DNA of 64,000 nucleotides from Syntrophales bacterium (GCA_963668175.1 OY764159.1:2080001-2144000), one strand, 5' to 3'; counted from the stretch's first letter, positions 1 through 25,811 are shown. Program-made: numbers and translations. The notes: generated from the sequence alone by a model not told the origin.

Positions 1-113
1 CCCTCAAGGTTCTTCCCGATAAATACTAAAGAATTAATAATCGGGTACTCAAAATTTTTGTCCAAAAAATGCAATTGGAAATATGGTTTGCCATAAATGA
101 AATGCTTATTCAT
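1..113 (-). CDS. Putative immunity protein of orphan Rhs cassette 6 (runs off the window start)
   Basis: ATG at 113 preceded by AAAGGAG; reads MNKHFIYGKPYFQLHFLDKNFEYPII with no stop before base 1; AT-rich, directly downstream of an Rhs-CT. Confidence 0.6.
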   Translation of the reverse strand, partial: MNKHFIYGKPYFQLHFLDKNFEYPIINSLVFIGKNLE

Positions 114-154: not shown

Positions 155-835
155 TCAAGGTACGAATACGGGACCCCTTGAAGGTGATCCGACCCCTTCA
201 CCTTGTCCACCGAATGAACCGCCTGGCACGAGGGGCGGAAACAATCTCCACCATGATTTATCTTCATTATTTGTTTTAGGACAATCATCATCTCCGCATT
301 CACAATTAATGGTCTTGTCGAAATCAAGTCTTTCAAGCACGGTTCCATTCTTCTCTTTAACTCGTCTGATCTTTTTTGTCCTCTGAACTTGACACGCCAA
401 TACGCCCTTGTTCCCGCAACGTAATTTACAGACGTCCCAGTCTGGCTTCTTGCATGGTTCGTAAGTTGTGTTCTGGTTTTGTTTCGCGAATCCATTTGGA
501 TCTACAGAATTAATCGGATCATTTTGGACGTAAGTAGAGAGATTCACATCCCCACCTGCAAACCCGATGGGGTCTTTCGTCACGAATCGTCCAGCCTGGG
601 GATCGTAGTAACGGGCGCGGTAGAAATACATGGACGTCTCGGCGTCGTATTCCCGGCCGGTGAACATAAAGGGTTGGCTGACATTACCGGAGCCGGAAAC
701 CGTGACATTCCCGAAGGCATCGTAGCCGTATGTCTGCACCATCGTTCCTGTTGCATCGCTCAATCCCGTAATCGATCCCAGCCCGTCGGCATGGTAGTAA
801 TAGGGCGTATATCCCGCCCCGCTCTTCGCCTCCAC
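155..835 (-). CDS. Orphan Rhs core + C-terminal toxin cassette 6 (Cys-rich CT); probably has no true start
   Basis: Near-identical to the core end of the full rhs (YYHADGLGS...FTGREYD...RARYYDP..GRF..KDPIG); PINSVDPNG cleavage motif; unique CT follows. Confidence 0.85.
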   Translation of the reverse strand: MEAKSGAGYTPYYYHADGLGSITGLSDATGTMVQTYGYDAFGNVTVSGSGNVSQPFMFTGREYDAETSMYFYRARYYDPQAGRFVTKDPIGFAGGDVNLSTYVQNDPINSVDPNGFAKQNQNTTYEPCKKPDWDVCKLRCGNKGVLACQVQRTKKIRRVKEKNGTVLERLDFDKTINCECGDDDCPKTNNEDKSWWRLFPPLVPGGSFGGQGEGVGSPSRGPVFVP

Positions 836-859
836 CGCCAGCGGTTCGTCGATGTCATA

Positions 860-945
860 TTTTCAAAGAACGGTTAGCTATCCGTAATTAAGTATACTGT
901 CCCCCGAATTATCTGTCCCCCGAATTATCCTAGTTTTCAAAGAAC
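860..945 (-). promoter_or_regulatory. Two copies of boxA-like motif GTTCTTTGAAAA (860-871, 934-945) upstream of cassette 6
   Basis: Same 12-mer also at 2420, 3863, 5070, 6318 and 7754, always in the coding orientation; resembles rrn boxA. Confidence 0.55.
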
Positions 946-1030
946 TTTCAATTACATTTATCTCAATTAAGTACCGCGTCCCCGACCAGGGGACGGGTCC
1001 CCCGAATGGGGATGCTGTCCCCGGAATTAT
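885..1030. repeat. Inter-cassette REP-like repeat (AATTAAGTA..CTGTCCCC.GAATT) with hairpin modules
   Basis: Related copies at about 2451-2536, 5101-5147, 7785-7851, and inverted at 52162-52204. Confidence 0.75.
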
Positions 1031-1171
1031 TCTGATGCAAAAAGCAGGGGAATAGAGTCCATCAAAGCAATGCCCCTGTGGCTTAGTCTCATTAGCATCA
1101 TCCTATCCTTCCGGTGTGTAGGGTGCTTATCTATCAATTCGGTACCCTCAGATTTATGGAATAAAAGGTCA

Positions 1172-1612
1172 TTAATCCTTGACTATTTCATACTTTCCAT
1201 TTACATCAGAAGGCCTCATTCCGTCAGGATAGGACACCCAGTAGAGATTAAGGTAAATATGTTTTCGATCTGTATCAACCCATGCATAACCAATATCCCA
1301 AATAGGTGTTTTACAGGATATCTTGTCAGGACTGTAAAAAAAGCCTTTTTGGTCACGGTAAGACCAATTCTCTCCTTTGCCGGTTAAGTTGATCGTATAA
1401 CGGCTATTTTCTTTTTTTAAAAAACCGTCAGCTGTGAATAAAGTCGTCTTATTAACTTCTATTTCCATAGTATATCCACCATCAGGATTTGTGCTGACTT
1501 TATAATTTATATCTTTAGCGGAACAATTTTCTACAATAATAAAATTTAAAAACAGAATTGATGCACTCAACAAAGGTATATATTTCATAATTCTCGTTTT
1601 CTTGTTTGACAT
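1172..1612 (-). CDS. Putative exported immunity protein (cassette 5)
   Basis: GGAGG RBS and ATG at 1612 right after the CT stop; N-terminal signal/TM segment; AT-rich. Confidence 0.75.
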   Translation of the reverse strand: MSNKKTRIMKYIPLLSASILFLNFIIVENCSAKDINYKVSTNPDGGYTMEIEVNKTTLFTADGFLKKENSRYTINLTGKGENWSYRDQKGFFYSPDKISCKTPIWDIGYAWVDTDRKHIYLNLYWVSYPDGMRPSDVNGKYEIVKD

Positions 1613-1616
1613 GTAA

Positions 1617-2396
1617 TTACCTCCCCGGACATGAACACTTTTCATGCCATCTATTCAACCATATTTTCGTCCATTCTTCTGCTCTACGCCATGCAGCATC
1701 ATCATTATCTGTGCTAAAGCCATCAAAAAAATGTCCAAAACCTAAGTTTTTCCAATACCGAAAAGGCATCCAACGATATCCTTTGGCAAAGTGCACAAAA
1801 TAATCTTGTCCACGATGCATAGCCCTTTGAAAATCATTACTGCTACAATTTGCGATTGCAGCTGATACATGTGCTTCTGACAAAGATAAATCGCGAAAAT
1901 GTCTTTCCGGATTACCAAATATTGTCGGCCCCGTTACGGGGTCTGTATCTTCAAGATAGTAGTCAAAAATATTAGAGCCTGAAAAATCCCTATGCCCTTT
2001 ATAGGCAGAACCTGGACCGCCTTTGTCAAATAACCCCAATGGATCATTTCCGTTTACGGGATCATTTGATACATAAGCATACTTGTTAATACCGCCTGCA
2101 AACCCTATCGGGTCCCTGGTCACGAATCGTCCTGCCTGGGGATCGTAGTATCTCGCCCGGCCCCCTATGCAGGGGGCGCAGTAGAAGTACATCTGTGTTT
2201 CCGCGTCGTACTCCCGGCCGGTGAACATGAACGGCTGGGCGACATTTCCGGAGCCGGAAACGGTGACATTTCCGAAGGCGTCGTAGCCGTATGTCTGCAC
2301 CATCGTTCCCGTCGCATCGCTCAATCCCGTGATCGAACCCAGGCCGTCGGCATGGTAGTAATAGGGCGTGAAACTGCTCCCCGCCTTGACTTCCAC
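1617..2396 (-). CDS. Orphan Rhs cassette 5; CT with HxxQDxxxH motif (Zn phospholipase C / Het-C-like)
   Basis: Rhs core, PVNGNDPLG motif, CT contains MHRGQDYFVH plus extra His residues. Confidence 0.8.
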   Translation of the reverse strand: MEVKAGSSFTPYYYHADGLGSITGLSDATGTMVQTYGYDAFGNVTVSGSGNVAQPFMFTGREYDAETQMYFYCAPCIGGRARYYDPQAGRFVTRDPIGFAGGINKYAYVSNDPVNGNDPLGLFDKGGPGSAYKGHRDFSGSNIFDYYLEDTDPVTGPTIFGNPERHFRDLSLSEAHVSAAIANCSSNDFQRAMHRGQDYFVHFAKGYRWMPFRYWKNLGFGHFFDGFSTDNDDAAWRRAEEWTKIWLNRWHEKCSCPGR

Positions 2397-2450
2397 CGCC
2401 AGCGGCTCGTCGATTTATGTTTTCAAAGAACTTTAAATTGCATCTATCTC

Positions 2451-2536
2451 AATGAAGTACCGCGTCCCCTGACCAGGGGACGGGTCCCCCGAATGGGGGA
2501 TGCTATTCCCGGAGTTATTGTTTCCCCCGAATTATT
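2451..2536. repeat. Inter-cassette REP-like repeat with two hairpin modules
   Basis: aagtac-cgcgtcccctgaccaggggac-gggtcccccgaatggggga-tgctattcccggagtt; matches the 965 and 7785 copies. Confidence 0.75.
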
Positions 2537-2577
2537 TGAAGATGTCGAAAATATTTGCATCCAGGAAATATTATACA

Positions 2578-3090
2578 TCACTGTTCAGTCGTTACGTTAA
2601 TCGTACTTTGTACGTTAATTTCTAATTCTTGGATTTTTTGCATCGCATAACTATCACACCACTGTTCTTCCGCTTTCGACGAAGATCCGATTAATTTATT
2701 ATTTGAATAGTGTTCAGAATAAACTACATGTCCAATCTCGTGAAATAACAAGAATATAGCATAACGTTTTGCATCAGCTAATTTCCATTTTATCAATCTA
2801 GTTTTTTTGTCGACAATACCCGAGAAGCGCTGGATTTGGTTTATATATTCTTTTTCATCTGTAAGAATCAAACTACTATAATTCTTTAGGCAGAAATTAA
2901 TTCGTATGTCATAATAATTTCCCTTTTGAACAGTCCGTCCTTCTTGAGTTGTTCTTGTATTGCAGCCAAATTCAATTAGTCGTATTTTATTTATATCTTC
3001 AATTGAAACGACGTTCTTAACTTTTGCCGCTTCACTTTTCGATAATGGATATAAATATTCGGCGGACACTTTATTGTATATGATTTTCAT
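2578..3090 (-). CDS. Putative immunity protein with HExxH zincin motif (cassette 4)
   Basis: LLFHEIGH followed by EEQWCDSYA (ImmA/IrrE-like pattern); downstream of the CT; AT-rich. Confidence 0.75.
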   Translation of the reverse strand: MKIIYNKVSAEYLYPLSKSEAAKVKNVVSIEDINKIRLIEFGCNTRTTQEGRTVQKGNYYDIRINFCLKNYSSLILTDEKEYINQIQRFSGIVDKKTRLIKWKLADAKRYAIFLLFHEIGHVVYSEHYSNNKLIGSSSKAEEQWCDSYAMQKIQELEINVQSTINVTTEQ

Positions 3091-3121
3091 GTTATTCCCG
3101 TTATGTGCATGATTTAGCTAC

Positions 3122-3838
3122 TTATCTTCTGCGCGGCCCTTTAGGTCCTTTCGGTACCCTATTATGTTCTTCACCGTCAGGATGCCCAACATTTCGTTCC
3201 CTTTCTCCACATTGTTTTCGTTCATCTGCTCCTTTACGCTTATTGGGATTTTCAGGTTTTGTATATTTATCCCTTCGGCTTTCCATCGGGGCATTGATCA
3301 AATCATATAATCCTTCACCAATGCCGCCTTCATAGAGTTGATGAGAAAGCCAATCTAAAATACCTACAGCATCATTACCGGCCTGTCGATATGCTTCATC
3401 TAATTGTTTGCTCTGCGGTGTTGGAAGTACAATTGGTAACGGTATAGGACCCGGTAATGCAATTGTCTGTAGACCCTCAGGATCATAATAATTCACAGGA
3501 TCATTTAGGACAAACGAAAATAGATTTACATCACCTGCCTCGAACCCGATGGGGTCTTTCGTCACGAATCGTCCCACAACGGGGTCATAGTAGCGGGCGC
3601 GGCCCCCTATGCAGGGGGCGCAGTAAAAATACATCCCGGTTTCCGCGTCGTACTCACGCCCTGTGAACATAAAGGGCTGGGCGACATTGCCGGAGCCGGA
3701 AACCGTGACATTCCCGAAGGCATCGTAGCCGTATGTCTGCACCATCGTTCCCGTCGCATCGCTCAATCCCGTGATCGAACCCAATCCGTCGGCGTGGTAG
3801 TAATAGGGCGTGAAACTGTTCCCCGCCTTCGCTTCCAC
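3122..3838 (-). CDS. Orphan Rhs cassette 4; basic CT ending HPDGEEHNRVPKG (possible nuclease)
   Basis: Rhs core, PVNYYDPEGL motif, unique basic CT. Confidence 0.8.
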   Translation of the reverse strand: MEAKAGNSFTPYYYHADGLGSITGLSDATGTMVQTYGYDAFGNVTVSGSGNVAQPFMFTGREYDAETGMYFYCAPCIGGRARYYDPVVGRFVTKDPIGFEAGDVNLFSFVLNDPVNYYDPEGLQTIALPGPIPLPIVLPTPQSKQLDEAYRQAGNDAVGILDWLSHQLYEGGIGEGLYDLINAPMESRRDKYTKPENPNKRKGADERKQCGERERNVGHPDGEEHNRVPKGPKGPRRR

Positions 3839-3903
3839 CGCCAGCGGTTCGTCGATGTTCGATTGTCAAAGAACTATCAGTTTAGGAGAAGAGAAAATCA
3901 ACA

Positions 3904-4395
3904 TTATCGCGCATCAGCGATCTTTGCATCACGGAGGATACCTTCTTTTGATCGCTGCTTTCCCATGAGATAAACAGAAAATCCATCCCTTACATTTTCA
4001 CAGTCTTTAATCGCATCAGAATAATAGCCCGCCTGATAATTCGCTTCTGCACGATAGAAGAACGAACTTTCTGTATAGTAATGATCGCTTATATCCTTTT
4101 CAATTCTAATTACTTCAGTAAAATCTTTGATCGCATCATCAATATTTCCAGATATTAAATTCCAACGACCTCTCGAGAAATAATCATCAGGTTCTATTGG
4201 TCCTATATTAATTATGGTATTGATATCTTCTATTGCGTCATTCCAACGTTCCATTCGGGCTAATATAAATGATCTTTGTTTATAGCCATCCCGTTCATTA
4301 GGATGATTCAAAATAAAATCATTACATATTTTGAGACCTTTTTCATAGAGACCAGCTTTTGCATATTGATATGCATTTTGGAGATTATCTTTCAT
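3904..4395 (-). CDS. TPR-repeat protein, putative immunity (cassette 3)
   Basis: GAGGTG RBS and ATG at 4395; TPR-like patterns (YFSRG...DAIKDF; FYRAEA...DAIKDC). Confidence 0.8.
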   Translation of the reverse strand: MKDNLQNAYQYAKAGLYEKGLKICNDFILNHPNERDGYKQRSFILARMERWNDAIEDINTIINIGPIEPDDYFSRGRWNLISGNIDDAIKDFTEVIRIEKDISDHYYTESSFFYRAEANYQAGYYSDAIKDCENVRDGFSVYLMGKQRSKEGILRDAKIADAR

Positions 4396-4409
4396 TGCGC
4401 ACCTCAAGA

Positions 4410-5045
4410 CTATGGATACCACTCAACTGGATTTCCACCACATCTTTGACTAACATGTCCACGAGCACAATCATGTATATTTCCGTATCCTCCGGTAATA
4501 CCCCTGCTGGGATTAGGCTTATTCAATTCTTTTCTGCACAATTCATAAGCATCTTCCCACTCTTTATCACAATCGTCTTTGCTATCTTCACATTTGGCCG
4601 TCTTAAATAATGGCTTGGGAGGATTCTTTATCAGTTGCGAGATCGCCAATATAACTGGCGGTCCATATACAACTGCCCATTGAATAATTTGAGTATAAAG
4701 ACCTTCTGGATCGTTATATCGAATGGAATTATTTTTAACATAAGTAAACAGATTAAAATCCCCGCCTGCGAACCCAATCGGGTCTTTCGTCAAGAATCGT
4801 CCTGCCTGGGGGTCGTAGTAACGGGCGCGGTAGAAATACATGGACGTCTCGGCGTCGTATTCCCGGCCGGTGAACATAAAGGGTTGGCTGACATTACCGG
4901 AGCCGGAAACCGTGACATTCCCGAAGGCATCGTAGCCGTATGTCTGCACCATCGTACCTGTCGCATCGCTCAATCCCGTAATCGATCCCAGGCCGTCGGC
5001 GTGGTAGTAATAGGGCGTATATCCTGCCCCGCTCTTCGCCTCCAC
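4410..5045 (-). CDS. Orphan Rhs cassette 3; small Cys-containing CT
   Basis: Rhs core, YNDPEGL motif. Confidence 0.8.
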   Translation of the reverse strand: MEAKSGAGYTPYYYHADGLGSITGLSDATGTMVQTYGYDAFGNVTVSGSGNVSQPFMFTGREYDAETSMYFYRARYYDPQAGRFLTKDPIGFAGGDFNLFTYVKNNSIRYNDPEGLYTQIIQWAVVYGPPVILAISQLIKNPPKPLFKTAKCEDSKDDCDKEWEDAYELCRKELNKPNPSRGITGGYGNIHDCARGHVSQRCGGNPVEWYP

Positions 5046-5167
5046 CGCCAGCGGTTCATCGATGTTAGATTTTCAAAGAACTTTAAATTACGTTTTTCTC
5101 AATTAATTACCGGGTCCCCTGACTAGGGGATGCTGTTCCCGAAATTACATAGACCCAAAAAATAAAA

Positions 5168-5509
5168 CTAATTACAGACTGTTTGTTTGCCGTCTCTCAT
5201 TAATTTATATTTTCCTTCAAGTACAAAACCGCTGCGTCCATCGGGTAAGCGTATTTCGATGATCATGTAGCTTTTCACATCTACGCATTTTGTAACTGGC
5301 ACACTTTGACTAGAAGACAGCGTTGCCATCGCATCAGGATGAGGCCATGTCATTGCCTCCTTTTCAGTTGCATAGACAGCCACTATATCTTCTGCAGTTA
5401 ATGTCATTCCGTTGGTCGACAGAATACGATGGATCGAAAAAGCTATCCCGAGTATGAGTAGAATCACTATAATTATGCTGATCAGCATCTTTTTTTTCAA
5501 TGTGCCCAT
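5168..5509 (-). CDS. Putative membrane-anchored immunity protein (cassette 2)
   Basis: N-terminal TM helix; overlaps the CT stop (alternative TTG start at 5500). Confidence 0.7.
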   Translation of the reverse strand: MGTLKKKMLISIIIVILLILGIAFSIHRILSTNGMTLTAEDIVAVYATEKEAMTWPHPDAMATLSSSQSVPVTKCVDVKSYMIIEIRLPDGRSGFVLEGKYKLMRDGKQTVCN

Positions 5510-6294
5510 GGCGCGTCTCTCCAATAATCGCGTGACGGACCTTGATAGAATTTTAATCTGTCAAGGTATATCGAGTTAAGTAAATCGTTGCCGATATTGA
5601 CTGGAAAATTTGAATCCGAGAAAGTCATTCCCGTGGCCTCTTTCAAGCATTCTTTATGCGGATCTCCACAGTTATTGGTAAATGTATTGTAATCCTTGCG
5701 TTTCTTTGCATAACATTCAATCAGTTTCTTTTCTTGATCAGGTGTAAGCCTAAGAATCGTACCAACACCGGAACGAAACTTCTCTTGGTTCTGAGCGTAG
5801 CTTGAAGCACTCGGATTACTATCCCATCCTCCTGGAGCCCAAGAGTAGTTTATTCCATTTACATTGGCTGATATATGACCAAATGAAGAACTACCCCATG
5901 TAACCGGCTGCCAGACAATTATTTCTGTATAGAATCCAAAGGAATCAACATAATTGACTGTGTTGTTTCCCACATACCCATACAAATTAAAATCCCCGCC
6001 CTCAAACCCGATGGGGTCTTTCGTCACGAATCGTCCTGCCTGGGGATCGTAGTATCTCGCCCGGCCCCCTATGCAGGGGGCGCAGTAGAAATACATGAAC
6101 GTTTCCGCGTCGTACTCACGGCCGGTGAACATGAAGGGCTGCGAGACGACGCCACTGGCCGTGACTTGGCCAAAGGCATCATAGCCGTATGTCTGGACCA
6201 TCGTTCCCGTTGCATCGCTCAATCCCGTGATCGATCCCAGGCCGTCGGCATGGTAGTAGTAGGGCGTATATCCCGCCCCGCTCTTGACCTCCAC
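5497..6294 (-). CDS. Orphan Rhs cassette 2; CT of permuted papain-like (DUF4105-like) type
   Basis: Rhs core; CT has FGHIS...YNTFTNNC (His before Cys). Confidence 0.8.
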   Translation of the reverse strand: MEVKSGAGYTPYYYHADGLGSITGLSDATGTMVQTYGYDAFGQVTASGVVSQPFMFTGREYDAETFMYFYCAPCIGGRARYYDPQAGRFVTKDPIGFEGGDFNLYGYVGNNTVNYVDSFGFYTEIIVWQPVTWGSSSFGHISANVNGINYSWAPGGWDSNPSASSYAQNQEKFRSGVGTILRLTPDQEKKLIECYAKKRKDYNTFTNNCGDPHKECLKEATGMTFSDSNFPVNIGNDLLNSIYLDRLKFYQGPSRDYWRDAPWAH

Positions 6295-6360
6295 CGCCAG
6301 CGCCTCGTCGATTTATGTTTTCAAAGAACGGTTAGTTAACTTGGTTTGACCCGTTGAGCG

Positions 6361-6951
6361 TCAAATATAATCAAAAAAGAAATCATTAACTGATAGCAAG
6401 ATGTTTGAGCCACACACCACAAGCGGAGAATGTGGAGCATGCTCAGGTATTAAATCATCGAATAATTGAGCCATTTTCTCGGCACTTCGAATATCTTCAA
6501 TTAATCCATAACTGTTTAATATTAAATGATTGTCTTCAATTAGATTTTCCTTAGAAAAGCGCAAGCTAAATCCGTAAATCGCACTTGTCTGCGTCATAGG
6601 ATCAACTACATCAAACCCGACAAAATCCCAGCCCTCTCGCATGTCAATCTCCGGGAGAGGTTGTGGCCTTGAGACATTACCTCTTAACAGGCGTACAACT
6701 AAATCGGTCGGCAGATCGAATGCAATAATGCGGGCTCCTAAAGGAAATTCCAATGATGAGATACTCGATGGATCAACAAAAAAAAGGTTGATCCCAGATC
6801 GATACTCTCGAGAATTCTCATAGATATTCTCATAGCGCACATCATTGTCATATGAAGTCATAAATAAGTTCTTCAGAGATGAGCTCTTTCGAATGTCAAA
6901 TCCAATAACGGTTCTTTCTGCTGCACAGAGTTTATCGGTTTTTTCTATCAT
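6361..6951 (-). CDS. Putative immunity protein (cassette 1), possible frameshift near the 3' end
   Basis: Starts 1 nt after the CT stop; AT-rich; apparent 2-nt duplication at about 6431-6434. Confidence 0.7.
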   Translation of the reverse strand: MIEKTDKLCAAERTVIGFDIRKSSSLKNLFMTSYDNDVRYENIYENSREYRSGINLFFVDPSSISSLEFPLGARIIAFDLPTDLVVRLLRGNVSRPQPLPEIDMREGWDFVGFDVVDPMTQTSAIYGFSLRFSKENLIEDNHLILNSYGLIEDIRSAEKMAQLFDDLIPEHAPHSPLVVCGSNILLSVNDFFFDYI

Positions 6952-6952
6952 C

Positions 6953-7729
6953 TCATCTGCTCCTACGGCCTTGAAAATCTGGGTAACTCGAACAGGGTTT
7001 CATGCCTGCCAGTGGTTCTTCCATAACACCAATACCAACCTTCCCACCAAGATATTGCCACTCACATTTCCCGGAAACCTTGAACATTTGGTAGATGTGA
7101 TAATGATTATTTAACGTTCCGTGACCATGTGTAGTGTGGGGTCCTTCGTAACACTTTGTTCCTACAGGTGGTTTGCAGTCTTGATCACTATTGCATTTCT
7201 TAGATGCAGTATCTTGTATCGAGTCAATCCAATTCTTGATATTTTCCCTTGGTCGACTAAAAAATTCTGTGAAGTCCTGCCATTGTTTCGGCGATAACTT
7301 TATTACGGGTATACCCCAAGATATGGGACCAAATCCTACTCGACTTCCTTCTGCGGAATCTAACCCGTCAGGGTCTATCAAGTTAACAGGCGAGTTCTCA
7401 ACATAAGCATAGAGATTAACATCCCCGCCTGCGAACCCGATGGGGTCTTTCGTCACGAATCGTCCAGCCTGGGGGTCGTAGTAACGGGCGCGGCCCCCTA
7501 TGCAGGGGGCGCAGTAAAAATACATCTGTGTTTCGGAATCGTACTCCCGGCCGGTGAACATGAACGGCTGGCTGACATTTCCGGAGCCGGAAACCGCGAC
7601 ATTCCCAAAGGCGTCGTAGCCGTATGTCTGCACCATCGTTCCCGTCGCATCGCTCAATCCCGTGATCGAACCCAGGCCGTCGGCATGGTAGTAATAGGGC
7701 GTATATCCCGCCCCGCTCTTCACTTCCAC
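6953..7729 (-). CDS. Orphan Rhs cassette 1; His/Cys-rich CT
   Basis: Rhs core, PVNLIDPDGL motif; CT contains HTTHGH...HYH. Confidence 0.8.
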   Translation of the reverse strand: MEVKSGAGYTPYYYHADGLGSITGLSDATGTMVQTYGYDAFGNVAVSGSGNVSQPFMFTGREYDSETQMYFYCAPCIGGRARYYDPQAGRFVTKDPIGFAGGDVNLYAYVENSPVNLIDPDGLDSAEGSRVGFGPISWGIPVIKLSPKQWQDFTEFFSRPRENIKNWIDSIQDTASKKCNSDQDCKPPVGTKCYEGPHTTHGHGTLNNHYHIYQMFKVSGKCEWQYLGGKVGIGVMEEPLAGMKPCSSYPDFQGRRSR

Positions 7730-7784
7730 CGCCAGCGGCTCGTCGATGTTCGATTGTCAAAGAACTATCAATTACATCTATCTC

Positions 7785-7851
7785 AATGAAGTACCGCGTC
7801 CCCTGACCAGGGGACGGGTTCCCCGAATGGGGGATGCTGTCCCCGGAATTC
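7785..7851. repeat. Inter-cassette REP-like repeat with two hairpin modules
   Basis: Near-identical to 965-1030 and 2451-2536. Confidence 0.75.
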
Positions 7852-7882: not shown

Positions 7883-8482
7883 TTAATTTGATTTTCTTCC
7901 AATATTTAGAATTATCTTTTTTAATAGTATTGCGCATGCAATAATAAAAATAGATTGAAACACCGCCAGCGCAGACATACTAAACCAAATACTCATCACT
8001 CCTTGAATTGCATAAGGGAACAAATTTACAAAGTATTCCCTTATTATACTGGAGATATCTATTAATACAGTTGGAGCAAGATTGACGAACATATTTGATG
8101 GAACAATTACAGGGAAATAGGTTACATAAACTACAATATCAGCGCCGTTTGATCTCTCCCAGTGAGACATGCCCATTGAAAACGACAGGAAGAATAATAA
8201 CGCAGAAATATCAATAGCGAACCAGATAACCATTAATTTATAAAGTCGTTTCCGGCTGATATAAAGAACAGTAGAAATTATCCAAACAAACCATACAAAC
8301 GGTATATATAAGACCAGCCAAGCGAAAAGAGTCTTCTCCGTACCAGCAAAAAAGAAGCTTATAAAAGGCGCGAGAATAGCGATAATGGTAATAACGATCA
8401 GGAAATTCATGAAAGCATCTTCAATACTAAAACGGCGGAGTGAGTAAAATCTATCTTTTATAATAGTACTAAGCCATTTCAT
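7883..8482 (-). CDS. Multi-pass membrane immunity protein of the full-length Rhs
   Basis: ATGA overlap with the rhs stop at 8479-8482; about 5 hydrophobic segments; AT-rich. Confidence 0.8.
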   Translation of the reverse strand: MKWLSTIIKDRFYSLRRFSIEDAFMNFLIVITIIAILAPFISFFFAGTEKTLFAWLVLYIPFVWFVWIISTVLYISRKRLYKLMVIWFAIDISALLFFLSFSMGMSHWERSNGADIVVYVTYFPVIVPSNMFVNLAPTVLIDISSIIREYFVNLFPYAIQGVMSIWFSMSALAVFQSIFIIACAILLKKIILNIGRKSN

Positions 8483-11400
8483 TGGAAGCATTCCTTTCTG
8501 CATGAATCATAAATGCCCTGCTGAACACGCTTACAATCTGCACCGTATTTCACACTGTAAAACAATACTTCTTGTTCTAATCTTTGCCATAGCCTTTCCG
8601 CACACTTGTCCATGCACTTGTTATTGTCATCTGCACCACAGACTGATTTTCCGTGACTAACATTTTCCCCGTCTTTCAAAATCTTTCCTTTTACGATACC
8701 GATAATTGCATTATCTATCCTGGAATTAGGATCTCTGCCATATCCGCGACACACTTGCTTCCCGTCTGAGCCAGTCCAGCAATGATATTCATGTGCCGCC
8801 GGACCAACCTGAGCACCCCAAAGAGCATCCAAGCCTGAGCTGCATTGCTGTAATAGTCCTTCTGGATCTATAAAATTCGCTGGATTGTTTTGTACATATC
8901 CAAACAGATTTATGTTTCCACCCCTGAACCCAATGGGGTCTTTCGTCACGAATCGTCCTGCCTGGGGATCGTAGTATCTCGCGCGGTAGAAGTACATTCC
9001 GGTTTCGGAATCGTACTCCCGGCCGGTGAACATGAATGGCTGGCTGACGCCGCCTGTCGCAACGACATTTCCGAAGGCATCGTAGCCGTATGTCTGCACC
9101 ATCGTACCCGTCGCATCGCTCAATCCCGTGATCGATCCCAGGCCGTCGGCATGGTAGTAATAGGGCGTATAGCTTGCCCCGCTCTTTACCTCCACCGCCA
9201 GCGGTTCGTCGATGTTCGGCCCGTGGGTATACCGGGCTGTTATTTCATTGCTACTATTATACTCTAAGATAATCGATTTGTCATCAAAAATGTAATACGT
9301 TGTACGCGGGCAGGTGTTCGGGCTTGTGCAGAGATTTCCGATGCCGTCGCTGACGACGGTCTTCGACACCCTGCGGCCGAAGGGGTCGTAGGCGAAAGTC
9401 AACTGCCGGACCTGGCCGTTCCTGTTCATCTGAATGCCCGTCAGGCGGTTCTCGTCGTCGTACGTGTAGGTCGTCGTTTCGTTCCCGGGGGGGACGGCGT
9501 CGGCGTTTTTCGTCAGGCGGTTGCCCACCTCGTCGTAGGTGTAGGCCTCCGTCTGGTGGACGCCCCCCGTGGGCGCGGCCTGCGTCAGGCGGTAGACGTC
9601 GTCGTAGGCATAGGCGTAGCTCTCCGCCGGTGCGGTCCGGGTGAGGCGGTTGCCCGCGTTGTCGTGGGTGTAGGTTACGCTGTCGACGGGCGCGCTGTTC
9701 TTCGTTGTCGCAATCCCCGTGAGGCGGCTGCTGGCGTCGTAGCCGTAGGCGGAGACGGTCCCGTTGGGGAGGGTCCGGGACATTCTCCTGTTCGCCGCGT
9801 CGTAGGCGAAGTCGAAGTTCCCCAGGGCCGTGGCGATACGGGCGGGGAGGCCGTTGTTGTCGTAGGTGTAGGTCAGGGTCCTGTTCTCCGGCGTGACCAT
9901 CGTCTGCCGGTTGCCCGCCGCGTCGTAGGTGTACCGGATCGTCCGGCTGTTCCCATCGACGATTTGCGTGACGCGGTTGTTCGCGTCGTAGGTGAAGGTA
10001 TAGGCTATGGCGGCGTTCCCCGCATAGGTCATGTTGCCCGCGTCGTCGTACTGGAAAGTCGCCGTGGAGCTGTCCGAATAGGTCTTGCCCGTGAGGCGGT
10101 TGTTGCCGTCGTACGTATAGGTGACGGTCTTGCTGTCGGGCCGGGTCAGGGTGTGCAGGTTGCCGTTCGCATCGTACGTATACGTCGTCGTCTTGCTCAG
10201 CGGGTCCGTCTCCCTGGTCAGTTCCCCGCCGGTGTTGTATTCGTACGCGGTGATATGGCTTTTCGCGTCCGTCACCGCCGTCAGCTTGTCCACGCCCGTG
10301 CCGCAGCCGGAGCAGCCGGAGCCGCTGTAGGCGAGATTGGTGATGTTGCCCAGGGCGTCGGTGATCCGCGTGAGCTGGTCGCGGTAATTGTAGAGGTAGT
10401 GAGCGGCTTTCGTGTTGGCGTCGGTGGACGACAGGCGGTTGCCCTTATAGTCGTAGGTATAGGCCGTGACGCGGTTACCGGGGTCCGTTGCCTGCGTGAG
10501 CTGGTTCAGGCTGTTGTACTGGAAATACGTGGTGTTGCCCAGGGCGTCCTTCTGCGAAAGCATGTTGCCCAGGCCGTCGTAAGTCATCTCGACGACGCCC
10601 AGCTTCGGGTCGGTGACGAACCGCAGGTTGTCGTACTGGTCGTATTCGAGGGTCGTGGTTTTGTTCAGGGGGTTCGTGATGCTTGCGATGTTCCCCCTGG
10701 CGTCGTAACCATAGTACGTGACGGCGTTCCCCGGCGCGGCGACGGACGTCAGGTTGCCCGCCGTGTCGTAGCCGTACTGCGTGACGTTGCTCCGGGGGTC
10801 GGTGACGGTCTCCACCAGGTTCAGGGCGTTGTACGTGTACGCCGTGGTCTTGTTCAGCGGGTCCGTCGCGGTGTGGAGGTTGCCGTTGGCATAGTAGGTG
10901 TATGTCGTGTAGCCCCCGCCGGGGTCCGTCTTTTTCGTGATGTTCCGGTTGGCGTCGTATTCGTAGGTCGTCTTGTGGCCCTGCGGGTCCGTCTTCTCGA
11001 TGAGGACGCCCAGGGCCTGATCGTACTTGTACGTCCAGACGCCGTTGTCCCTCTCCGTCACGAGCGTCGTGGCCGTCGCCGGGTCGTACGCCACGGTCCG
11101 CGTCTTGCTTTCCGGGTCCAGGGCCTGCGTCACTTTATGATCGGCGTCGTAGGTGTACCGGGTCTCGTTGCCGTCCGGGTCGGTCTTCGTCAGCATGAAG
11201 AGCTGGGCGTCGTACGTGAAGCCCCAGGTCTTTGTCCCCATGGGGGTCTGGGAGGCGATTTGCGTGAGGGCGTCGCCCGTGTACGTGAAGGTGTGGGTGT
11301 TGTTGTTGGGGTCGGTGATCGTGTCGATCCGGTTCCCCGCGTTGTACGCGAAGCCGATGGACTTGCCCCTGGGGTCCGTCACGGTTTCGAGGTAGCCGTT

Positions 11401-12903
11401 GCCGTCGTATGTCAGGGAGAGGGTGTTGCCGTTCCTGTCGGCGATGCTCGCGAGCTTATCGGCGTTGAACGTATAGACGGTGCCGTCCCTGAAGGCGAGG
11501 GTGCCCACGTCGTCCTGGTTTACGCTGAGCACCGGGTAGGGGGAGTATTCGGGCCTGTAGACGCCGCCGTCCGGATACAGGACGGTCTTACCGCCGTCCC
11601 CCCAGACGACCGTGTAGTAATCGTTGTTCTGGAGGCTGATATTATAGGAATGCGTCCAGCCCGTGGCGAGGAGGCCGTTGGCCCTGTCCGTGCTGTTGTA
11701 GGTCAGGGCGAGGTCCGGCATGAGGCGGGAATTGGGCACCCTGAAGAGCGTCTGGGTGTGTTGAAGATTGCCGCTCGCCACATTCGCCGTCGAGCCGAAA
11801 ACGAGCTTGAGCATCTTGGGGCCGCACTTGTCGCCATCGCTGCTTTCCGTAATAGTGAAGGTTGTGGTGGCAATTGCCGTACATGATCCTACTGTGGCGG
11901 TCAGGACGGCGGCATAGGTATTTCCGGGATTCAGCGGTCTGGTGCTTGCTATGCTTTTCCAGGTTCCGTCGGCGCTGGTGCCCGTACCGCTCAGGATCGG
12001 TACGTCGTCTACTGCGATATTCCAGGTTATCCCGGCGGGATTCGAGCCGGCGATGGTGCCGTTGAAAGTGATCGTTCCGCCGGTGCTGGGATCGATCTTT
12101 GTGGACGAAGCGCTAAACGACGAGATCGAAAGGCTGCACGGGGACGTGAGGGCCGCGGGACAGCAGCCCGCGGTTTTCATGGCAGCCGTTCTTTTATCGT
12201 AAGGACTATGTTCAATGTTATAGCGTGCGGACCCGGGAAGAAAATAATAGGCACAGGTGTTTCCATCTCTACGGCATAACATGAGATTTATACCATCTCC
12301 ACCTGCAGTATACAAATCGTTATAGGCTGTGCTGTCATGCACACAATAACTATAATCTCCTGGATGACAGCCCCTGTCATTACAGATATCGGCGTCCTTG
12401 GTCCCGCTTATGCAGCACTTTGCCGCCGATTCTGTTCCATCGCACTTATACCCGGTGGTGCATATACTGGCCGTATAAACACTACATCCTGTACAATATT
12501 GTGGACAGCCAAATTGGCAATCCGAATATTTGCTAACGGTAAAATCGGAAAAGGTGCGATACGCTTCTGCCGTTGAGGTGGAACCGTTCACCGCAATCTG
12601 CACTTCAGCAATCTGGCCGCATTCGTCGGTGACGCGGACGACGGGATTGCTGGCGCAGTTGGGATTCGATGAGGGGGCCGTGTAGACGCCGGCCTGTGTG
12701 ATGCTCCCGCCGCCGGTAACCGACCAGGTTTTGGTTCCGTCGCACCCGCCGGAGGCCGTCAGCGTCTGGCTGGTGTTGACGGCCATGGTCGGCTGCGGCA
12801 CCGAAATCGTCAGCGGAACGGCCCAGGCCGCGCCTGTCCAAAGCAGAAGAAAACCGTACATAACGGCCGCCGGCAGAAGATATCGTCTCGCCTGTCTTTT
12901 CAT
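8479..12903 (-). CDS. rhs: Full-length Rhs/YD-repeat polymorphic toxin with N-terminal signal peptide
   Basis: 1474 aa; signal peptide ending AWA; many YD repeats (YTYDxxGN); core motif PANFIDPEGL; AT-rich variable CT. Confidence 0.95.
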   Translation of the reverse strand: MKRQARRYLLPAAVMYGFLLLWTGAAWAVPLTISVPQPTMAVNTSQTLTASGGCDGTKTWSVTGGGSITQAGVYTAPSSNPNCASNPVVRVTDECGQIAEVQIAVNGSTSTAEAYRTFSDFTVSKYSDCQFGCPQYCTGCSVYTASICTTGYKCDGTESAAKCCISGTKDADICNDRGCHPGDYSYCVHDSTAYNDLYTAGGDGINLMLCRRDGNTCAYYFLPGSARYNIEHSPYDKRTAAMKTAGCCPAALTSPCSLSISSFSASSTKIDPSTGGTITFNGTIAGSNPAGITWNIAVDDVPILSGTGTSADGTWKSIASTRPLNPGNTYAAVLTATVGSCTAIATTTFTITESSDGDKCGPKMLKLVFGSTANVASGNLQHTQTLFRVPNSRLMPDLALTYNSTDRANGLLATGWTHSYNISLQNNDYYTVVWGDGGKTVLYPDGGVYRPEYSPYPVLSVNQDDVGTLAFRDGTVYTFNADKLASIADRNGNTLSLTYDGNGYLETVTDPRGKSIGFAYNAGNRIDTITDPNNNTHTFTYTGDALTQIASQTPMGTKTWGFTYDAQLFMLTKTDPDGNETRYTYDADHKVTQALDPESKTRTVAYDPATATTLVTERDNGVWTYKYDQALGVLIEKTDPQGHKTTYEYDANRNITKKTDPGGGYTTYTYYANGNLHTATDPLNKTTAYTYNALNLVETVTDPRSNVTQYGYDTAGNLTSVAAPGNAVTYYGYDARGNIASITNPLNKTTTLEYDQYDNLRFVTDPKLGVVEMTYDGLGNMLSQKDALGNTTYFQYNSLNQLTQATDPGNRVTAYTYDYKGNRLSSTDANTKAAHYLYNYRDQLTRITDALGNITNLAYSGSGCSGCGTGVDKLTAVTDAKSHITAYEYNTGGELTRETDPLSKTTTYTYDANGNLHTLTRPDSKTVTYTYDGNNRLTGKTYSDSSTATFQYDDAGNMTYAGNAAIAYTFTYDANNRVTQIVDGNSRTIRYTYDAAGNRQTMVTPENRTLTYTYDNNGLPARIATALGNFDFAYDAANRRMSRTLPNGTVSAYGYDASSRLTGIATTKNSAPVDSVTYTHDNAGNRLTRTAPAESYAYAYDDVYRLTQAAPTGGVHQTEAYTYDEVGNRLTKNADAVPPGNETTTYTYDDENRLTGIQMNRNGQVRQLTFAYDPFGRRVSKTVVSDGIGNLCTSPNTCPRTTYYIFDDKSIILEYNSSNEITARYTHGPNIDEPLAVEVKSGASYTPYYYHADGLGSITGLSDATGTMVQTYGYDAFGNVVATGGVSQPFMFTGREYDSETGMYFYRARYYDPQAGRFVTKDPIGFRGGNINLFGYVQNNPANFIDPEGLLQQCSSGLDALWGAQVGPAAHEYHCWTGSDGKQVCRGYGRDPNSRIDNAIIGIVKGKILKDGENVSHGKSVCGADDNNKCMDKCAERLWQRLEQEVLFYSVKYGADCKRVQQGIYDSCRKECFQ

Positions 12904-13785: not shown

Positions 13786-14607
13786 TTATCGGCCCGCCTT
13801 CCGGTTCTTCAGGGCTCTTGCGGCCTTCACGAGGACGTAGGCCGTAAGCAGCCCGCCGGCAAAAATACCGAAGAATAGGACCGTTGAAAGGACCGTCGCT
13901 TTCAGGTGATCCAGGGAGAAAAACGCCAGGTCCTTTACCAGTCCGGGAAAGAAGAGGAATCCTAAAATCACCTGAACAAGGTGGCATCCCAGCGCCAGGA
14001 AAAATGCGAGCCAAAATAGCTGCCGAACAGGAAGCTTCATCACGGCGGCGAACAACAGAGCGGTCATGGCTGCGAAGAAGACAACGTAGGTTATATCCTT
14101 GCCGGGATCGGCAAAACGGCTCTGGGCAATGCCGATAAAGGCGAGAAGGGAAACGAGCTCGATCAGGAGGCCCCACGCCGTTATTTTTGTCAGATCTTTC
14201 TTTATCAGCGGTTGTGCGGTTTTCGCAATCTTCACAAGAACGAAGGCCGAAAACAGCCCGCCCGCGGAGTGAGCTAAATATATAACCGTCCCGCGGACTA
14301 TGTGTTCTAAGTGAAGAAGGGAAAAGAACTCTATGCCTTTCACCAGGCCGGGAAAGAAGAGGTAGCCTAAAATATCCTCAATGATTTTACACCCCAGTGC
14401 GAGGAAAAACGCGAGTAGAAAGAGATGCCGCACAGACAGACGCAGAACGGCGTAAATCGATAGGGCGGCCATAGCCGCATAGGAGACGATTTCGACGATT
14501 TCCTTGCCGGGATCGGCCAGGTTGGAATGGGCGATGCGGATGAAAACAACAATGGCGATGAGCTCGATCAAGAGACCCCATGCCGCGATTTTCGCCAGAT
14601 CTTTCAT
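13786..14607 (-). CDS. Membrane protein made of two tandem homologous halves; putative immunity
   Basis: KDLxKIxAWGLLIEL...ADPGK...LAFFLALGC...LFFPGLVK occurs twice; ATGA overlap with the upstream gene. Confidence 0.75.
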   Translation of the reverse strand: MKDLAKIAAWGLLIELIAIVVFIRIAHSNLADPGKEIVEIVSYAAMAALSIYAVLRLSVRHLFLLAFFLALGCKIIEDILGYLFFPGLVKGIEFFSLLHLEHIVRGTVIYLAHSAGGLFSAFVLVKIAKTAQPLIKKDLTKITAWGLLIELVSLLAFIGIAQSRFADPGKDITYVVFFAAMTALLFAAVMKLPVRQLFWLAFFLALGCHLVQVILGFLFFPGLVKDLAFFSLDHLKATVLSTVLFFGIFAGGLLTAYVLVKAARALKNRKAGR

Positions 14608-15137
14608 TGTCTCACGATGACAAGAATGGGCTCCATATGCATCATTAATTTCGGTAATAACTCCTTATCACGATTCCCGATATTAATGCAACCCCCTGTT
14701 CCGATATGTGTGCCGCCGTGTAAATAGAATCCTGTTCTACCATAGGTGTCGGTTCCATCGGGAAGGAGTGCCGCCCGGTAGTTACCCCATGCTGCTCGAT
14801 CTTGAGGTCTCACGTCTTCGATTTTTGAGGGATCTAAAAGATATGTTCCGGGAGGAATGGGGCCTTTCCAGGGGATAGATGGATCTTTCTCTCCTGGTTG
14901 GCCGCTCTGAGCTGGATAGGAACCTATGAGCTTTCCACCCGAGCCGTAATAATGGACGTATCCGTCCTCGAAAATCAGCATGGGCCGCCGCCAGAGGTGT
15001 TCCCTGACGGTTACGCCGTCCTGATCGACGTCCTCAATAATATCCCGATCCTTGTCGTAATAACGATATTTCCCATCCTCAAAGATCAGGACAGGGGAAT
15101 TAGAACTCTCATTTTTGTTGTTCGTACTGTCTGCCAT
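14604..15137 (-). CDS. Tlde1/DUF2778-family (L,D-transpeptidase-fold) protein
   Basis: GPIPPGTY...RTGFYLHGG...GGCI motif set; AAGGAG RBS. Confidence 0.8.
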   Translation of the reverse strand: MADSTNNKNESSNSPVLIFEDGKYRYYDKDRDIIEDVDQDGVTVREHLWRRPMLIFEDGYVHYYGSGGKLIGSYPAQSGQPGEKDPSIPWKGPIPPGTYLLDPSKIEDVRPQDRAAWGNYRAALLPDGTDTYGRTGFYLHGGTHIGTGGCINIGNRDKELLPKLMMHMEPILVIVRQ

Positions 15138-17416: not shown

Positions 17417-17512
17417 CAGGCTGTTGAAAAACGCCCATCTGTCGCTTGTCACCTTCAGGTGACGCTGTGCCCCCTGCATAGGGGGCTCATAAACTGGATT
17501 TCCAAAAAGCTG
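17417..17512. mobile_element. MITE-like ~100-bp element with internal hairpins
   Basis: Ends AGGCTGTTGAAAAACGCCC and TTTCCAAAAAGCTG; related copy at 55984-56095. Confidence 0.5.
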
Positions 17513-24414: not shown

Positions 24415-25551
24415 TCAGTCTAATGTGCGTAAATTCAATTTGTATCGATCGTTTTCCTGCGATAGAACAGTCAACTCCACCAATTTTGCAAGATCTCTTC
24501 TCGCCGTACGTTCGCTCACGCTCCTGTATAAGGCATTATAAGGAGGTTCTTGAAATAGTTCTTTTAGAGATATCGTACCGCCCCGATTCAGCAGGTTGCT
24601 TAACAAGTCGTGCTGCCTCTGGGTGATGACCTTGCCGGCATAGAGCGATGCATACAAATCCCGTATGACCAATTCACGAATTCTAAGCGTCACATCGTCT
24701 TTAATCTTATTCAAAGACTCGACGACGCCTTCCATCATAAATTTAAGAAACGGCGTTACGTCGTTGTCCGCCGCTTTTCTGGTGAGTGAAAAAGCCCAAT
24801 AATAATCGTCCATATTCCTGTAGTAGTAGTTCGACAGCATGGTCGGTACGTATTTCATGCCGGACGTTCTAAGGAGCAGCGCTTCGATGACCCGAATGGT
24901 CCGGCCGTTGCCGTTGCCGAAGGGATGGATCAACCCCAAATGATAATGCGCCAAGGCCGCCCTGACGAGCCCGTCCAATGCCAGGACTTCTTCGCTATTG
25001 ATCCAACCCACAAATTCTTTCATCAGATTGACAATGTCCGGCTGACATTTGGGCGGCGTATGGATGCCGCCGTGTTCTTTGTCGCCGACTTTTACGACGT
25101 GGTTTCTGTAACCGCCGGGAAGATTATCGGTCCGCTCGATGCCGCTTGTGATGATGCGGTGAGATTCTTTGATTATTTCCTCGGTCAACTTGAGGGGGGC
25201 TGCCGCCGGGGCAATCGTCTTGATCCGGTCATAGACTTTTTTAAGGTTCCGGATGGCTTTTTCCGCGTCGGTGATCTTTTGACCGCTTTCCGCTTGGGCT
25301 ATAATTTCCCCGACCTCTTCTTCTTTCAGGGGATTGCCTTCTAGTGCGGCCGTACTGAAAATGGACCGGCGAATGAGTTCTTGTTCCAAATGGGCCGACC
25401 ACGCCGGCAGGACAGGCAAATCGTCTATCGTTTTGTACAAAAGCTTGGACTCGAAAAGGAGATTATGAAGTTCGGAGGCGTCATATTTCGCGCTGAATGC
25501 AAAGTGACCGGATTTGAAGGTCATGACTTTTTTAACAAGATTGATGTCCAT
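24415..25551 (-). CDS. Fic-domain protein with C-terminal HTH
   Basis: HPFGNGNGRTIR; N-terminal STAALEGN inhibitory motif; SERTARRDL..L HTH. Confidence 0.92.
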   Translation of the reverse strand: MDINLVKKVMTFKSGHFAFSAKYDASELHNLLFESKLLYKTIDDLPVLPAWSAHLEQELIRRSIFSTAALEGNPLKEEEVGEIIAQAESGQKITDAEKAIRNLKKVYDRIKTIAPAAAPLKLTEEIIKESHRIITSGIERTDNLPGGYRNHVVKVGDKEHGGIHTPPKCQPDIVNLMKEFVGWINSEEVLALDGLVRAALAHYHLGLIHPFGNGNGRTIRVIEALLLRTSGMKYVPTMLSNYYYRNMDDYYWAFSLTRKAADNDVTPFLKFMMEGVVESLNKIKDDVTLRIRELVIRDLYASLYAGKVITQRQHDLLSNLLNRGGTISLKELFQEPPYNALYRSVSERTARRDLAKLVELTVLSQENDRYKLNLRTLD

Positions 25552-25811
25552 GATCTTGTCGCCCAAATAACCCGATTATACAATTCATTCGAAAAAGGTC
25601 ATGCCGTTTGCCGTCAAAAATGTATGGCGCCAGGATGTCCATATAACAATGACCGAAACGATTGTCAAGTATTATGACACATAAAATGTCAACATATAAT
25701 GTTATAATATCGACAAGATGAGTTAGCTGTGTTCCGATATATGTCATAAAATATGTCAATATGATTGGCCGATGATTGCAGGGATGGCATAGGGTGGGAT
25801 TTCGCCGCCCC

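Follow-up and report, generated by a model that had tools for sequence, protein, structure and literature searches.

A boxA-like word identical to the host's rrn spacer boxA stands before the orphan cassettes of an Rhs array in a Syntrophales genome

A 64,000-nucleotide (nt) stretch of DNA from a Syntrophales bacterium (GCA_963668175.1 OY764159.1:2080001-2144000), referred to below as the window, carries an array of truncated Rhs genes in which a 12-nt word resembling boxA, the antitermination element of ribosomal RNA (rrn) operons, recurs at the cassette junctions. The genome (G000) is one 4.57-Mb contig with a single rrn operon. All features of the array are encoded on the minus strand, and positions are those of the window unless genome positions are named. 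The head of the array is a full-length rhs gene (8479..12903), an open reading frame (ORF) of 1474 amino acids with Pfam matches to RHS_repeat (E=1.5e-97), TEN_YD-shell and DUF6531, followed by the candidate immunity gene of its toxin (7883..8503; 34% G+C), whose membrane-like product of 206 amino acids matches no Pfam family and whose putative role is assigned from its position. Six cassettes were found behind it, each composed of a stub that repeats the Rhs core end over ~270 nt, a distinct C-terminal region and a small AT-rich gene with its own ribosome-binding site. The orphans, in which the stub runs into a putative C-terminal toxin region, lie at 6953..7752 (orphan 1), 5497..6316 (orphan 2), 4410..5068 (orphan 3), 3122..3861 (orphan 4), 1617..2418 (orphan 5) and 155..858 (orphan 6). 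The corresponding candidate immunity genes lie at 6361..6951 (gene 1, with AGGAG 3-4 nt 5′ of its ATG), 5168..5510 (gene 2), 3904..4395 (gene 3, with TPR repeats; Pfam TPR_2, E=7e-11), 2578..3090 (gene 4) and 1172..1612 (gene 5), and the start of the sixth (1..113) runs off the left edge of the window. The six stubs are 82-90% identical to one another and to the main rhs gene, and the sequences diverge after the stub. A start codon with a ribosome-binding site was found at the 5′ end of none of the orphans, and the ribosome-free orphan RNA, measured as length of sequence, would amount to 0.67-0.81 kb per cassette, in agreement with an earlier sequence-only reading of this DNA, in which the orphans were said to lack real starts over about 0.7 kb each. 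By its layout the locus is an orphan Rhs toxin-immunity array, with toxin and immunity activities that are putative.

The word GTTCTTTGAMAA was found in seven exact copies in the window (860, 934, 2420, 3863, 5070, 6318 and 7754), all on the minus strand, which is the sense strand of rhs. The chance expectation in the window is 0.01, and none of 100 shuffled sequences reached seven copies. The sequence-only reading had placed copies at these seven positions, each of which proved exact, and an eighth was located 345 nt to the left of the window (genome 2079655-2079666), where it is followed by a core stub of ~85 nt that ends the array (motif and stub, genome 2079666-2079575). The form GTTCTTTGACAA was found at junction 1 (7754..7765), between the main immunity gene and orphan 1, and at junction 4 (3863..3874), and the form GTTCTTTGAAAA at junctions 2 (6318..6329), 3 (5070..5081), 5 (2420..2431) and 6 (860..871) and in a solo copy (934..945), which has no stub behind it; next to it come a partial repeat and, after that, the copy at 860. 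By alignment, six copies in the window lie 1-6 nt 5′ of the onset of main-rhs core homology, which falls at one and the same core position in 6/6 junctions; a distance within about 10 nt had been claimed. At the corresponding place the main rhs gene has unrelated coding letters, and the word is therefore not a piece of rhs. It sits between the stop codon of an immunity gene and a stub without start signals, outside the rhs reading frame, and it supplies, as its TGA, the in-frame stop that bounds each orphan frame on the upstream side. The word thus placed lies in untranslated sequence on the sense strand of a region that is presumably transcribed.

Among the six complete orphans, 11/12 columns of the word are invariant, as compared with 4/40 columns upstream, 1/6 in the linker, 199/300 in the stub and 44/100 at third codon positions of the stub. 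Since the columns of the word are invariant and its flanks are variable, the word is an island of conservation between variable flanks. Its sole variable column is position 10 (A or C), at which the leader and spacer boxA of the rrn operon also differ. Eleven exact copies are present in the whole genome, eight of them in the array, one in the 16S-23S spacer and two within long ORFs, the genes of which resemble, by eye, a GntR-type regulator and an acyl-CoA dehydrogenase; the nine copies outside long ORFs are consequently those of the array and the one of the rrn spacer.

The rrn leader and the 16S-23S spacer are the two places in which boxA is expected. The spacer boxA of this genome (GTTCTTTGACAA), 50 nt 5′ of the 23S gene and after the spacer transfer RNA genes, is identical to the array word at 12/12 positions, and the leader boxA (GTTCTTTGGAAA), ~75 nt 5′ of the 16S gene and downstream of a TTGACA-17-TATATA promoter, at 11/12. 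A match of the array word to rrn boxA had been proposed, with the comparison against the genome's own rrn operon set beforehand as its test, and this comparison left the proposal standing. Elsewhere in the order, G032, G242, G120 and G112 share this spacer word exactly, and G220 has it with a single base changed. Leader words of the form G[TACG]TCTTTG[GA][AC]AA followed by TTGAATA were found in G000, G120, G126, G164 and G220; the leader word of G032 continues with CTGAATA rather than TTGAATA, and that of G242 (GTTCTTTATAAT, followed by TTGAATA) is outside the common leader pattern. Genes for Rho (PF07497) and NusB (PF01029) scored over the cut-off in profile searches of both G000 and G032. 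By these comparisons, the identification of the array word as a boxA appears well supported. The role of NusB:NusE:BoxA is treated in the relevant passages of PMC2800207. The form GTTCTTTGAAAA also occurs in work that is concerned, judged by its titles, with detection of Mycoplasma and phytoplasma, in which it is taken to be a spacer primer for the polymerase chain reaction.

The sequence further upstream of the word had been described as variable. This holds for the immediate flank but not for a ~90-nt repeat with a GGGGAC hairpin, which stands 5′ of the word at four junctions and, as two short arms, at a fifth. The copy directly 5′ of motif 1 (7766..7850) is a long form of an arm resembling a repetitive extragenic palindrome (REP), AATTCCGGGGACAG...TACTTAATT; further copies were found at 2432-2535, 946-1028 and 5082-5133, and the short arms at 872-925, all on the minus strand. 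The arm AATTCCGGGGACAGTATACTTAATT is also found 5′ of the word in G032, where this is the place of 12/12 genome copies of the arm, and at one metagenome junction. The arm pattern, AATTCCGGGGACA[GC][CT]ATACTTAATT, is that of a palindromic repeat like REP or miniature inverted-repeat transposable elements (MITE), with 'stuttered' partial copies on its 5′ side, and it is enriched in the Rhs arrays of G000, G032 and G242. Copies elsewhere lie at genome positions 2047083, 2169567, 2609819, 2660196/2660260 and 2901291 and at loci L267-L271, and G242 has 50 such REP/MITE-like copies, one of which holds, by eye, an IS110-like gene between its arms. The arm occurs without the word in the arrays of G242, and the word occurs without the arm at 3/8 junctions of G000; since each occurs alone, the two are separable. 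A candidate 'terminal repeat' 5′ of the word was discarded, as it turned out to be the arm of this palindromic repeat. The hairpins resemble weak terminators when read on the antisense strand, and a single weak terminator is predicted for the sense strand of the whole array.

Other Rhs arrays were collected for comparison. In the same order, 339 genomes were searched with the core-end protein and matches were obtained in 86, and 20 loci from 16 genomes were examined; a phylum sample of 401 genomes gave 20 further array loci from 15 genomes, and metagenomes contributed 78 loci, among which 29 had at least two core ends. Kin in this sampling are not independent, and copies within any one genome share their origin through duplication. 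Among the 16 further genomes of the order, only G032, of another family, carries the word. Its three arrays hold all 14 genome copies of GTTCTTTGACAT, which are sense-oriented and each 5′ of a stub or stub remnant. Its stubs start ~298 residues before the core end, as against ~10 in G000; homology to the main genes, which are of a different type (SpvB/TcdB-mid/RHS), begins 10 nt after the word, and the arrays are flanked by ordinary insertion sequence (IS) genes and the reverse transcriptase of a group II intron. In the metagenomes, two contigs of one sediment assembly (L192 and L216) have GATCTTTGACAA directly 5′ of the stub at three junctions, at yet another core position.

The only carrier among the 15 genomes of the phylum sample was G382, which belongs to another order. 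Its assembly contains four exact copies of GTTCTTTGACAA, and all four are at Rhs junctions, on four contigs (L312, L317, L318 and L319). The word continues there with TTGAA(T), as in rrn leaders, and is followed by 18-20 variable bases and a 13-bp GC-rich hairpin that shows two compensatory pairs and, in 3/4 copies, a U-rich tail. As a module, the G382 junction reads as a short 4-bp stem, the boxA word with TTGAA, the 18-20 variable bases, the terminator-like hairpin and the Rhs stub. In L312, the only G382 junction measured, 48 nt separate the word from the opening of the stub frame and include the hairpin, and across junction types the distance from word to stub ranges from ~2 to 48 nt. All 29 junction-region copies, of all types, are on the sense strand. 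The occurrence of the same 12-mer at four kinds of junction that differ in truncation point, flanks and distance to the stub argues for selection on the word and speaks against the simple inheritance of one junction.

Several other occurrences of the word were set apart from the arrays. Three tandem paralogous lipoprotein-like genes of ~580 amino acids each on L314 (G382:C2) contain GTTCTTTGAAAT in the coding frame (EFFEIP), and these copies were rejected as a coding coincidence that mimics an array. A contig scan with GTTCTTTGAMAAN{3,9}ATYGAYGA was also abandoned as too loose: it gave at least 120 matches, and no Rhs junction was among the matches listed. The largest group of these, by reading, consisted of ammonium-transporter genes coding for FFDKxKIDDP. 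Dispersed copies of the word in G143 and G112, of which 20 were sampled, mostly lie within coding frames; the sample also includes one rrn spacer, one intergenic site, two ends of IS481/IS3-like elements and, judged by eye, the 3′ end of an integrase-type (rve-like) transposase frame.

Word counts across the order showed a large excess in some genomes. In G220, 14 inverted pairs of the word spaced ~1630 bp apart correspond to an IS1182-family element (DDE_Tnp_1_6 and DUF772, with relatives annotated as IS1182; L169-L171), and in G120, seven inverted pairs 1161 bp apart correspond to an rve-type, IS481/IS3-like element (L172-L174). The word was also found at contig ends in G164 (L175-L177) and at IS loci in G112 (L290-L291). 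In the elements it lies 17-125 nt from the terminus and ~48-75 nt 5′ of the transposase starts. IS1182 relatives on plasmids of six other genera, from other classes, had the terminal repeat of the family, and 0/6 had a boxA-like word near the ends; the word is therefore not the transposase site of the family but a lineage-specific addition. One host-specific 12-mer shared by two unrelated elements, Rhs junctions and the rrn operon points to a host factor, and for RNA that enters an element from either side an inward boxA would be sense-oriented. Interpretation of the junction as the remnant of an IS end was rejected on geometry: an IS before the stub would leave a distant reverse complement of the word, not an abutting sense copy.

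Some further features of the locus were recorded. A 21-nt palindromic insert (a hairpin of seven G-C-rich pairs) lies in frame within the conserved Rhs core end of orphans 1, 2, 4 and 5 (7493-7513, 6064-6084, 3602-3622 and 2160-2180, minus strand), where it adds seven residues, CAPCIGG, between YFY and RARYYDP; it is absent from orphans 3 and 6 and from the main rhs gene. A further copy lies at 17466-17486 (plus strand), and nearly identical words were found at at least five other sites in the genome. Upstream of rhs, a weak match to a Tlde1 domain (14604-15134, minus strand; E=2.7e-6, below the curated cut-off) and a gene of the Fic family (24415-25563, minus strand) were found. Assembly contigs from three sequencing runs break at the stub repeats, one run contributed no reads to this stretch, and joints near 871, 3876 and 7753 had short sides and unknown inserts, and nothing was drawn from them.

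On the evidence of sequence comparison, the word would be a loading site for NusB and ribosomal protein S10, one per cassette, that shields the untranslated orphan RNA from Rho, and we judge this account to be a little more probable than its opposite. The 12-mer would act as an rrn-type boxA on the nascent RNA and load NusB and S10, together with NusA, NusG and SuhB. The array would be read as one long transcript from the rhs promoter, and after each immunity gene the polymerase would enter ribosome-free orphan sequence, in which Rho would normally terminate transcription. With boxA emerging first, the polymerase would become a Rho-resistant complex, as in rRNA operons, and would then reach the next immunity gene, which is equipped with its own ribosome-binding site. 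Cassettes might be moved by single crossovers between stubs, and a boxA of its own would keep each cassette expressible anywhere. Co-transcription of the array, binding of Nus factors, sensitivity of the orphan RNA to Rho and read-through are thus steps that we infer from the arrangement. The word shows no stable, conserved pairing in predicted folds, which is compatible with the binding of single-stranded RNA. The interpretation given in the sequence-only reading, which was of this kind, is partly supported overall: the observation itself was confirmed and extended, and the antitermination function it proposed appears plausible and specific.

A number of observations weigh against this account. 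The claim that the word would be present in homologous arrays was borne out in G032, one sediment metagenome and G382, but no boxA-like word was found in the arrays of 15/16 further genomes of the order or of 14/15 genomes from the other orders of the phylum, at 76/78 metagenome loci (29 of the 78 having two or more core ends), or at the orphan junctions of the rhsA and rhsC loci of E. coli K-12. As most of the orphan arrays examined have no such word, it is not needed for orphan arrays in general; and since duplication links the copies of any one genome, the 29 copies reduce to four independent cases, one for each junction type. In the orphans the sense strand is rich in G, with a C/G ratio of ~0.8 and ratios above 1.5 in 0-5% of 78-nt windows, so that strong Rho loading sites are not evident in the orphan RNA, which weakens, without removing, the premise that Rho acts there. 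A promoter scan predicted promoter-like words in the AT-rich toxin regions, from which the immunity genes could be expressed independently, and internal promoters in toxin regions and the core end of Salmonella rhs are described in the part of PMC7043789 that deals with them. In G220, position 2 is G or A in the rrn words and T in the IS copies, so that covariation between the two is not strict. Upstream-flank and linker types are reshuffled among the junctions of G000, which could reflect exchange of DNA at the word. Finally, in the two unrelated IS families, the word lies inside both ends, facing inward, within a longer subterminal inverted repeat; a DNA-binding site would produce just such an inverted pair, and this leaves room for a role at the level of DNA or of mobile DNA.

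This last role is the main rival to antitermination. The word would then be the binding or crossover point of some recombinase, transposase or DNA-binding host protein at the boundary between cassette and Rhs core, and its likeness to boxA would be incidental or due to a shared host factor. Besides the reshuffled flanks and the inverted pairs in IS ends, this would account for the position of the word at the edge of homology in every cassette in one orientation, for the tandem arrangement of two junctions at 934/860 with no cassette between them, and for the REP-like arms with 'stuttered' partial copies 5′ of the word in G000, G032 and one metagenome junction. However, a chance match between a recombination core and the 12-nt boxA of the host is very unlikely, and the word is found at four types of junction. 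The match in G382 reaches into the flank of the rrn leader, and in L312 the distance to the stub frame and the intervening hairpin imply that the word is not the joint. No integrase, recombinase or transposase family was detected at E<=1e-5 within 15-18 kb of the G000 array (13 ORFs upstream and 11 downstream), and no attC-like fold was found at six G000 junctions, one G032 junction and one metagenome junction (z of -1.3 to +0.8). The separability of arm and word and the lack of the word in the IS1182 relatives from other classes point the same way, and the uniform stub boundaries could be explained by single-crossover integration and excision between stubs. The sequence-only reading had itself named a site-specific recombination site as its alternative; the lack of a nearby recombinase, the lack of a fold in G000 and the variable distance to the stub weaken it, although the presence of the word in the ends of two IS families speaks in its favour. 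We regard a DNA-level site as unlikely, though deserving of serious consideration.

The remaining explanations are less probable still. The sequence evidence for boxA would serve equally a Nus-factor site of opposite purpose, at which the bound complex blocks translation initiation nearby and thereby silences orphan toxin fragments or read-in transposases. Work of Baniulyte et al. from 2017 is reported to have described such a block by a bound Nus complex in the suhB leader of E. coli. The position of the word directly 5′ of the orphan toxin frames and ~48-75 nt 5′ of transposase starts would suit such a function, as would the terminator-like hairpin that follows it in G382. Near the word in the G000 orphans, however, there is no start codon with a ribosome-binding site and so nothing obvious to repress, and the continued expression of the downstream immunity genes would be left unexplained; this reading is distinctly improbable. 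An inert word that was present in one ancestral junction and was copied without function by duplication and stub recombination would agree with the shared stub boundary of all cassettes within a genome, and recombination from stub to stub might copy the junction automatically. The word was nevertheless conserved while both of its flanks diverged, it is carried by four junction types with different stub boundaries and flanks, and it equals the rrn boxA, and such hitch-hiking is accordingly very hard to credit. Least credible of all is that TTGACA or TTGAAA within the word forms the -35 box of a promoter for each cassette. The word does include a hexamer that fits the -35 box perfectly or nearly so, GTTCTTGACA at the -35 box of the order's rrn promoters is shorter than the boxA word by one T, and the rrn spacer copies of G000 and G032 have a 4/6 match to a -10 box 16-17 nt downstream. 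At 24/24 Rhs junction copies tested, by contrast, the best -10 match at 16-18 nt was 1-2/6 and lacked the key A2 and T6, and a promoter scan found nothing at the junctions except one promoter spanning the solo copy; the promoter reading was rejected on these grounds. The solo copy lies in the spacer of a promoter-like TTGAAA-16-GATAAT (10/12; 924-951, minus strand).

Antitermination by boxA can be set beside several known systems. With the rrn boxA/Nus complex the junctions have in common the same 12-mer, sense-oriented, at the head of a long run of untranslated sequence and repeated along one unit (leader and spacer in rrn), and at the G382 junctions the leader flank TTGAA(T) as well. Unlike rrn boxA, the word precedes cassettes of protein genes instead of structural RNA, there are up to eight copies per unit as opposed to two, and its role is a proposed one; no boxC-like or processing-stalk context was found at the junctions. 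A boxA 5′ of arrays of clustered regularly interspaced short palindromic repeats (CRISPR) promotes the expression of distal spacers, according to the statement in PMC7862264, which cites Stringer et al. 2020. As described there, that boxA likewise stands ahead of a long, repetitive, untranslated accessory array whose distal units are to be transcribed, with Rho as the proposed adversary; it is present in one copy in the leader, whereas the Rhs array has one per cassette and alternates translated immunity genes with untranslated stretches. As to CRISPR leaders as a second context of boxA outside rrn in the host itself, a crude repeat scan revealed no CRISPR array in G000. The order of boxA and then hairpin that is known from lambdoid nut sites is found in G382, where a conserved hairpin that shows compensatory changes lies ~25 nt beyond the word. 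That hairpin is, however, a terminator-like structure of 13 GC-rich base pairs with a U-rich tail and not a 5-bp boxB, and G000 has no hairpin after the word, its hairpins being upstream. We know of no N-like gene for these junctions.

The closest systems in gene content are the orphan rhs-CT/rhsI arrays and the cdiA-CT/cdiI arrays of contact-dependent inhibition (CDI), in which CT denotes the C-terminal toxin region. In the arrays as presented in the pertinent sections of PMC3150448 and PMC7043789, a full-length gene is likewise followed by cassettes of a stub, a distinct CT and an immunity gene, with stubs that have no initiation signals and immunity genes that have them. For the orphan CDI toxin fragments of E. 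coli EC93, the account in PMC3150448 includes the absence of initiation signals, co-transcription with the main gene and production of the immunity protein. The published expression routes in these sources are co-transcription and internal promoters, and a junction boxA is not mentioned in the portions of the literature that were searched. Integron attC sites resemble the word in that a short conserved element occurs at every cassette boundary of a one-directional array; in contrast to attC, the G000 junctions have neither imperfect inverted repeats nor a conserved fold, no integrase is nearby, and the distance to the cassette varies. The word also does not fit GTTRRRY, the core of attC.

A full-text literature search, which did not cover supplements, gave no description of boxA at Rhs or polymorphic-toxin arrays or in IS ends, in agreement with the statement of the sequence-only reading that none was known for polymorphic toxin arrays. 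To our knowledge, few natural uses of Nus antitermination on protein-coding accessory loci are known beyond rRNA, phage and CRISPR, and if the function holds, the array would represent a known mechanism in a novel variant, at work where it had not been described. Arrays of orphan toxin-immunity cassettes are widespread, and the expression of distal immunity genes across untranslated toxin fragments is understood in few cases; a boxA at each cassette would be a third solution to it, besides co-transcription and internal promoters, and the genome's own rrn boxA at cassette heads would provide a sequence rule for transcriptionally live arrays. That IS ends carry the word as well may be a sign that Rho silencing and mobile DNA interact more widely. 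More tentatively, and with considerable doubt on our part, boxA may be a portable 'anti-Rho passport' in this phylum, which heads orphan cassettes and, as inward copies in IS, lets transcripts through and makes insertions non-polar. If this were true, mobile and polymorphic loci would have a general, host-encoded route by which to escape the silencing of foreign untranslated DNA by Rho.

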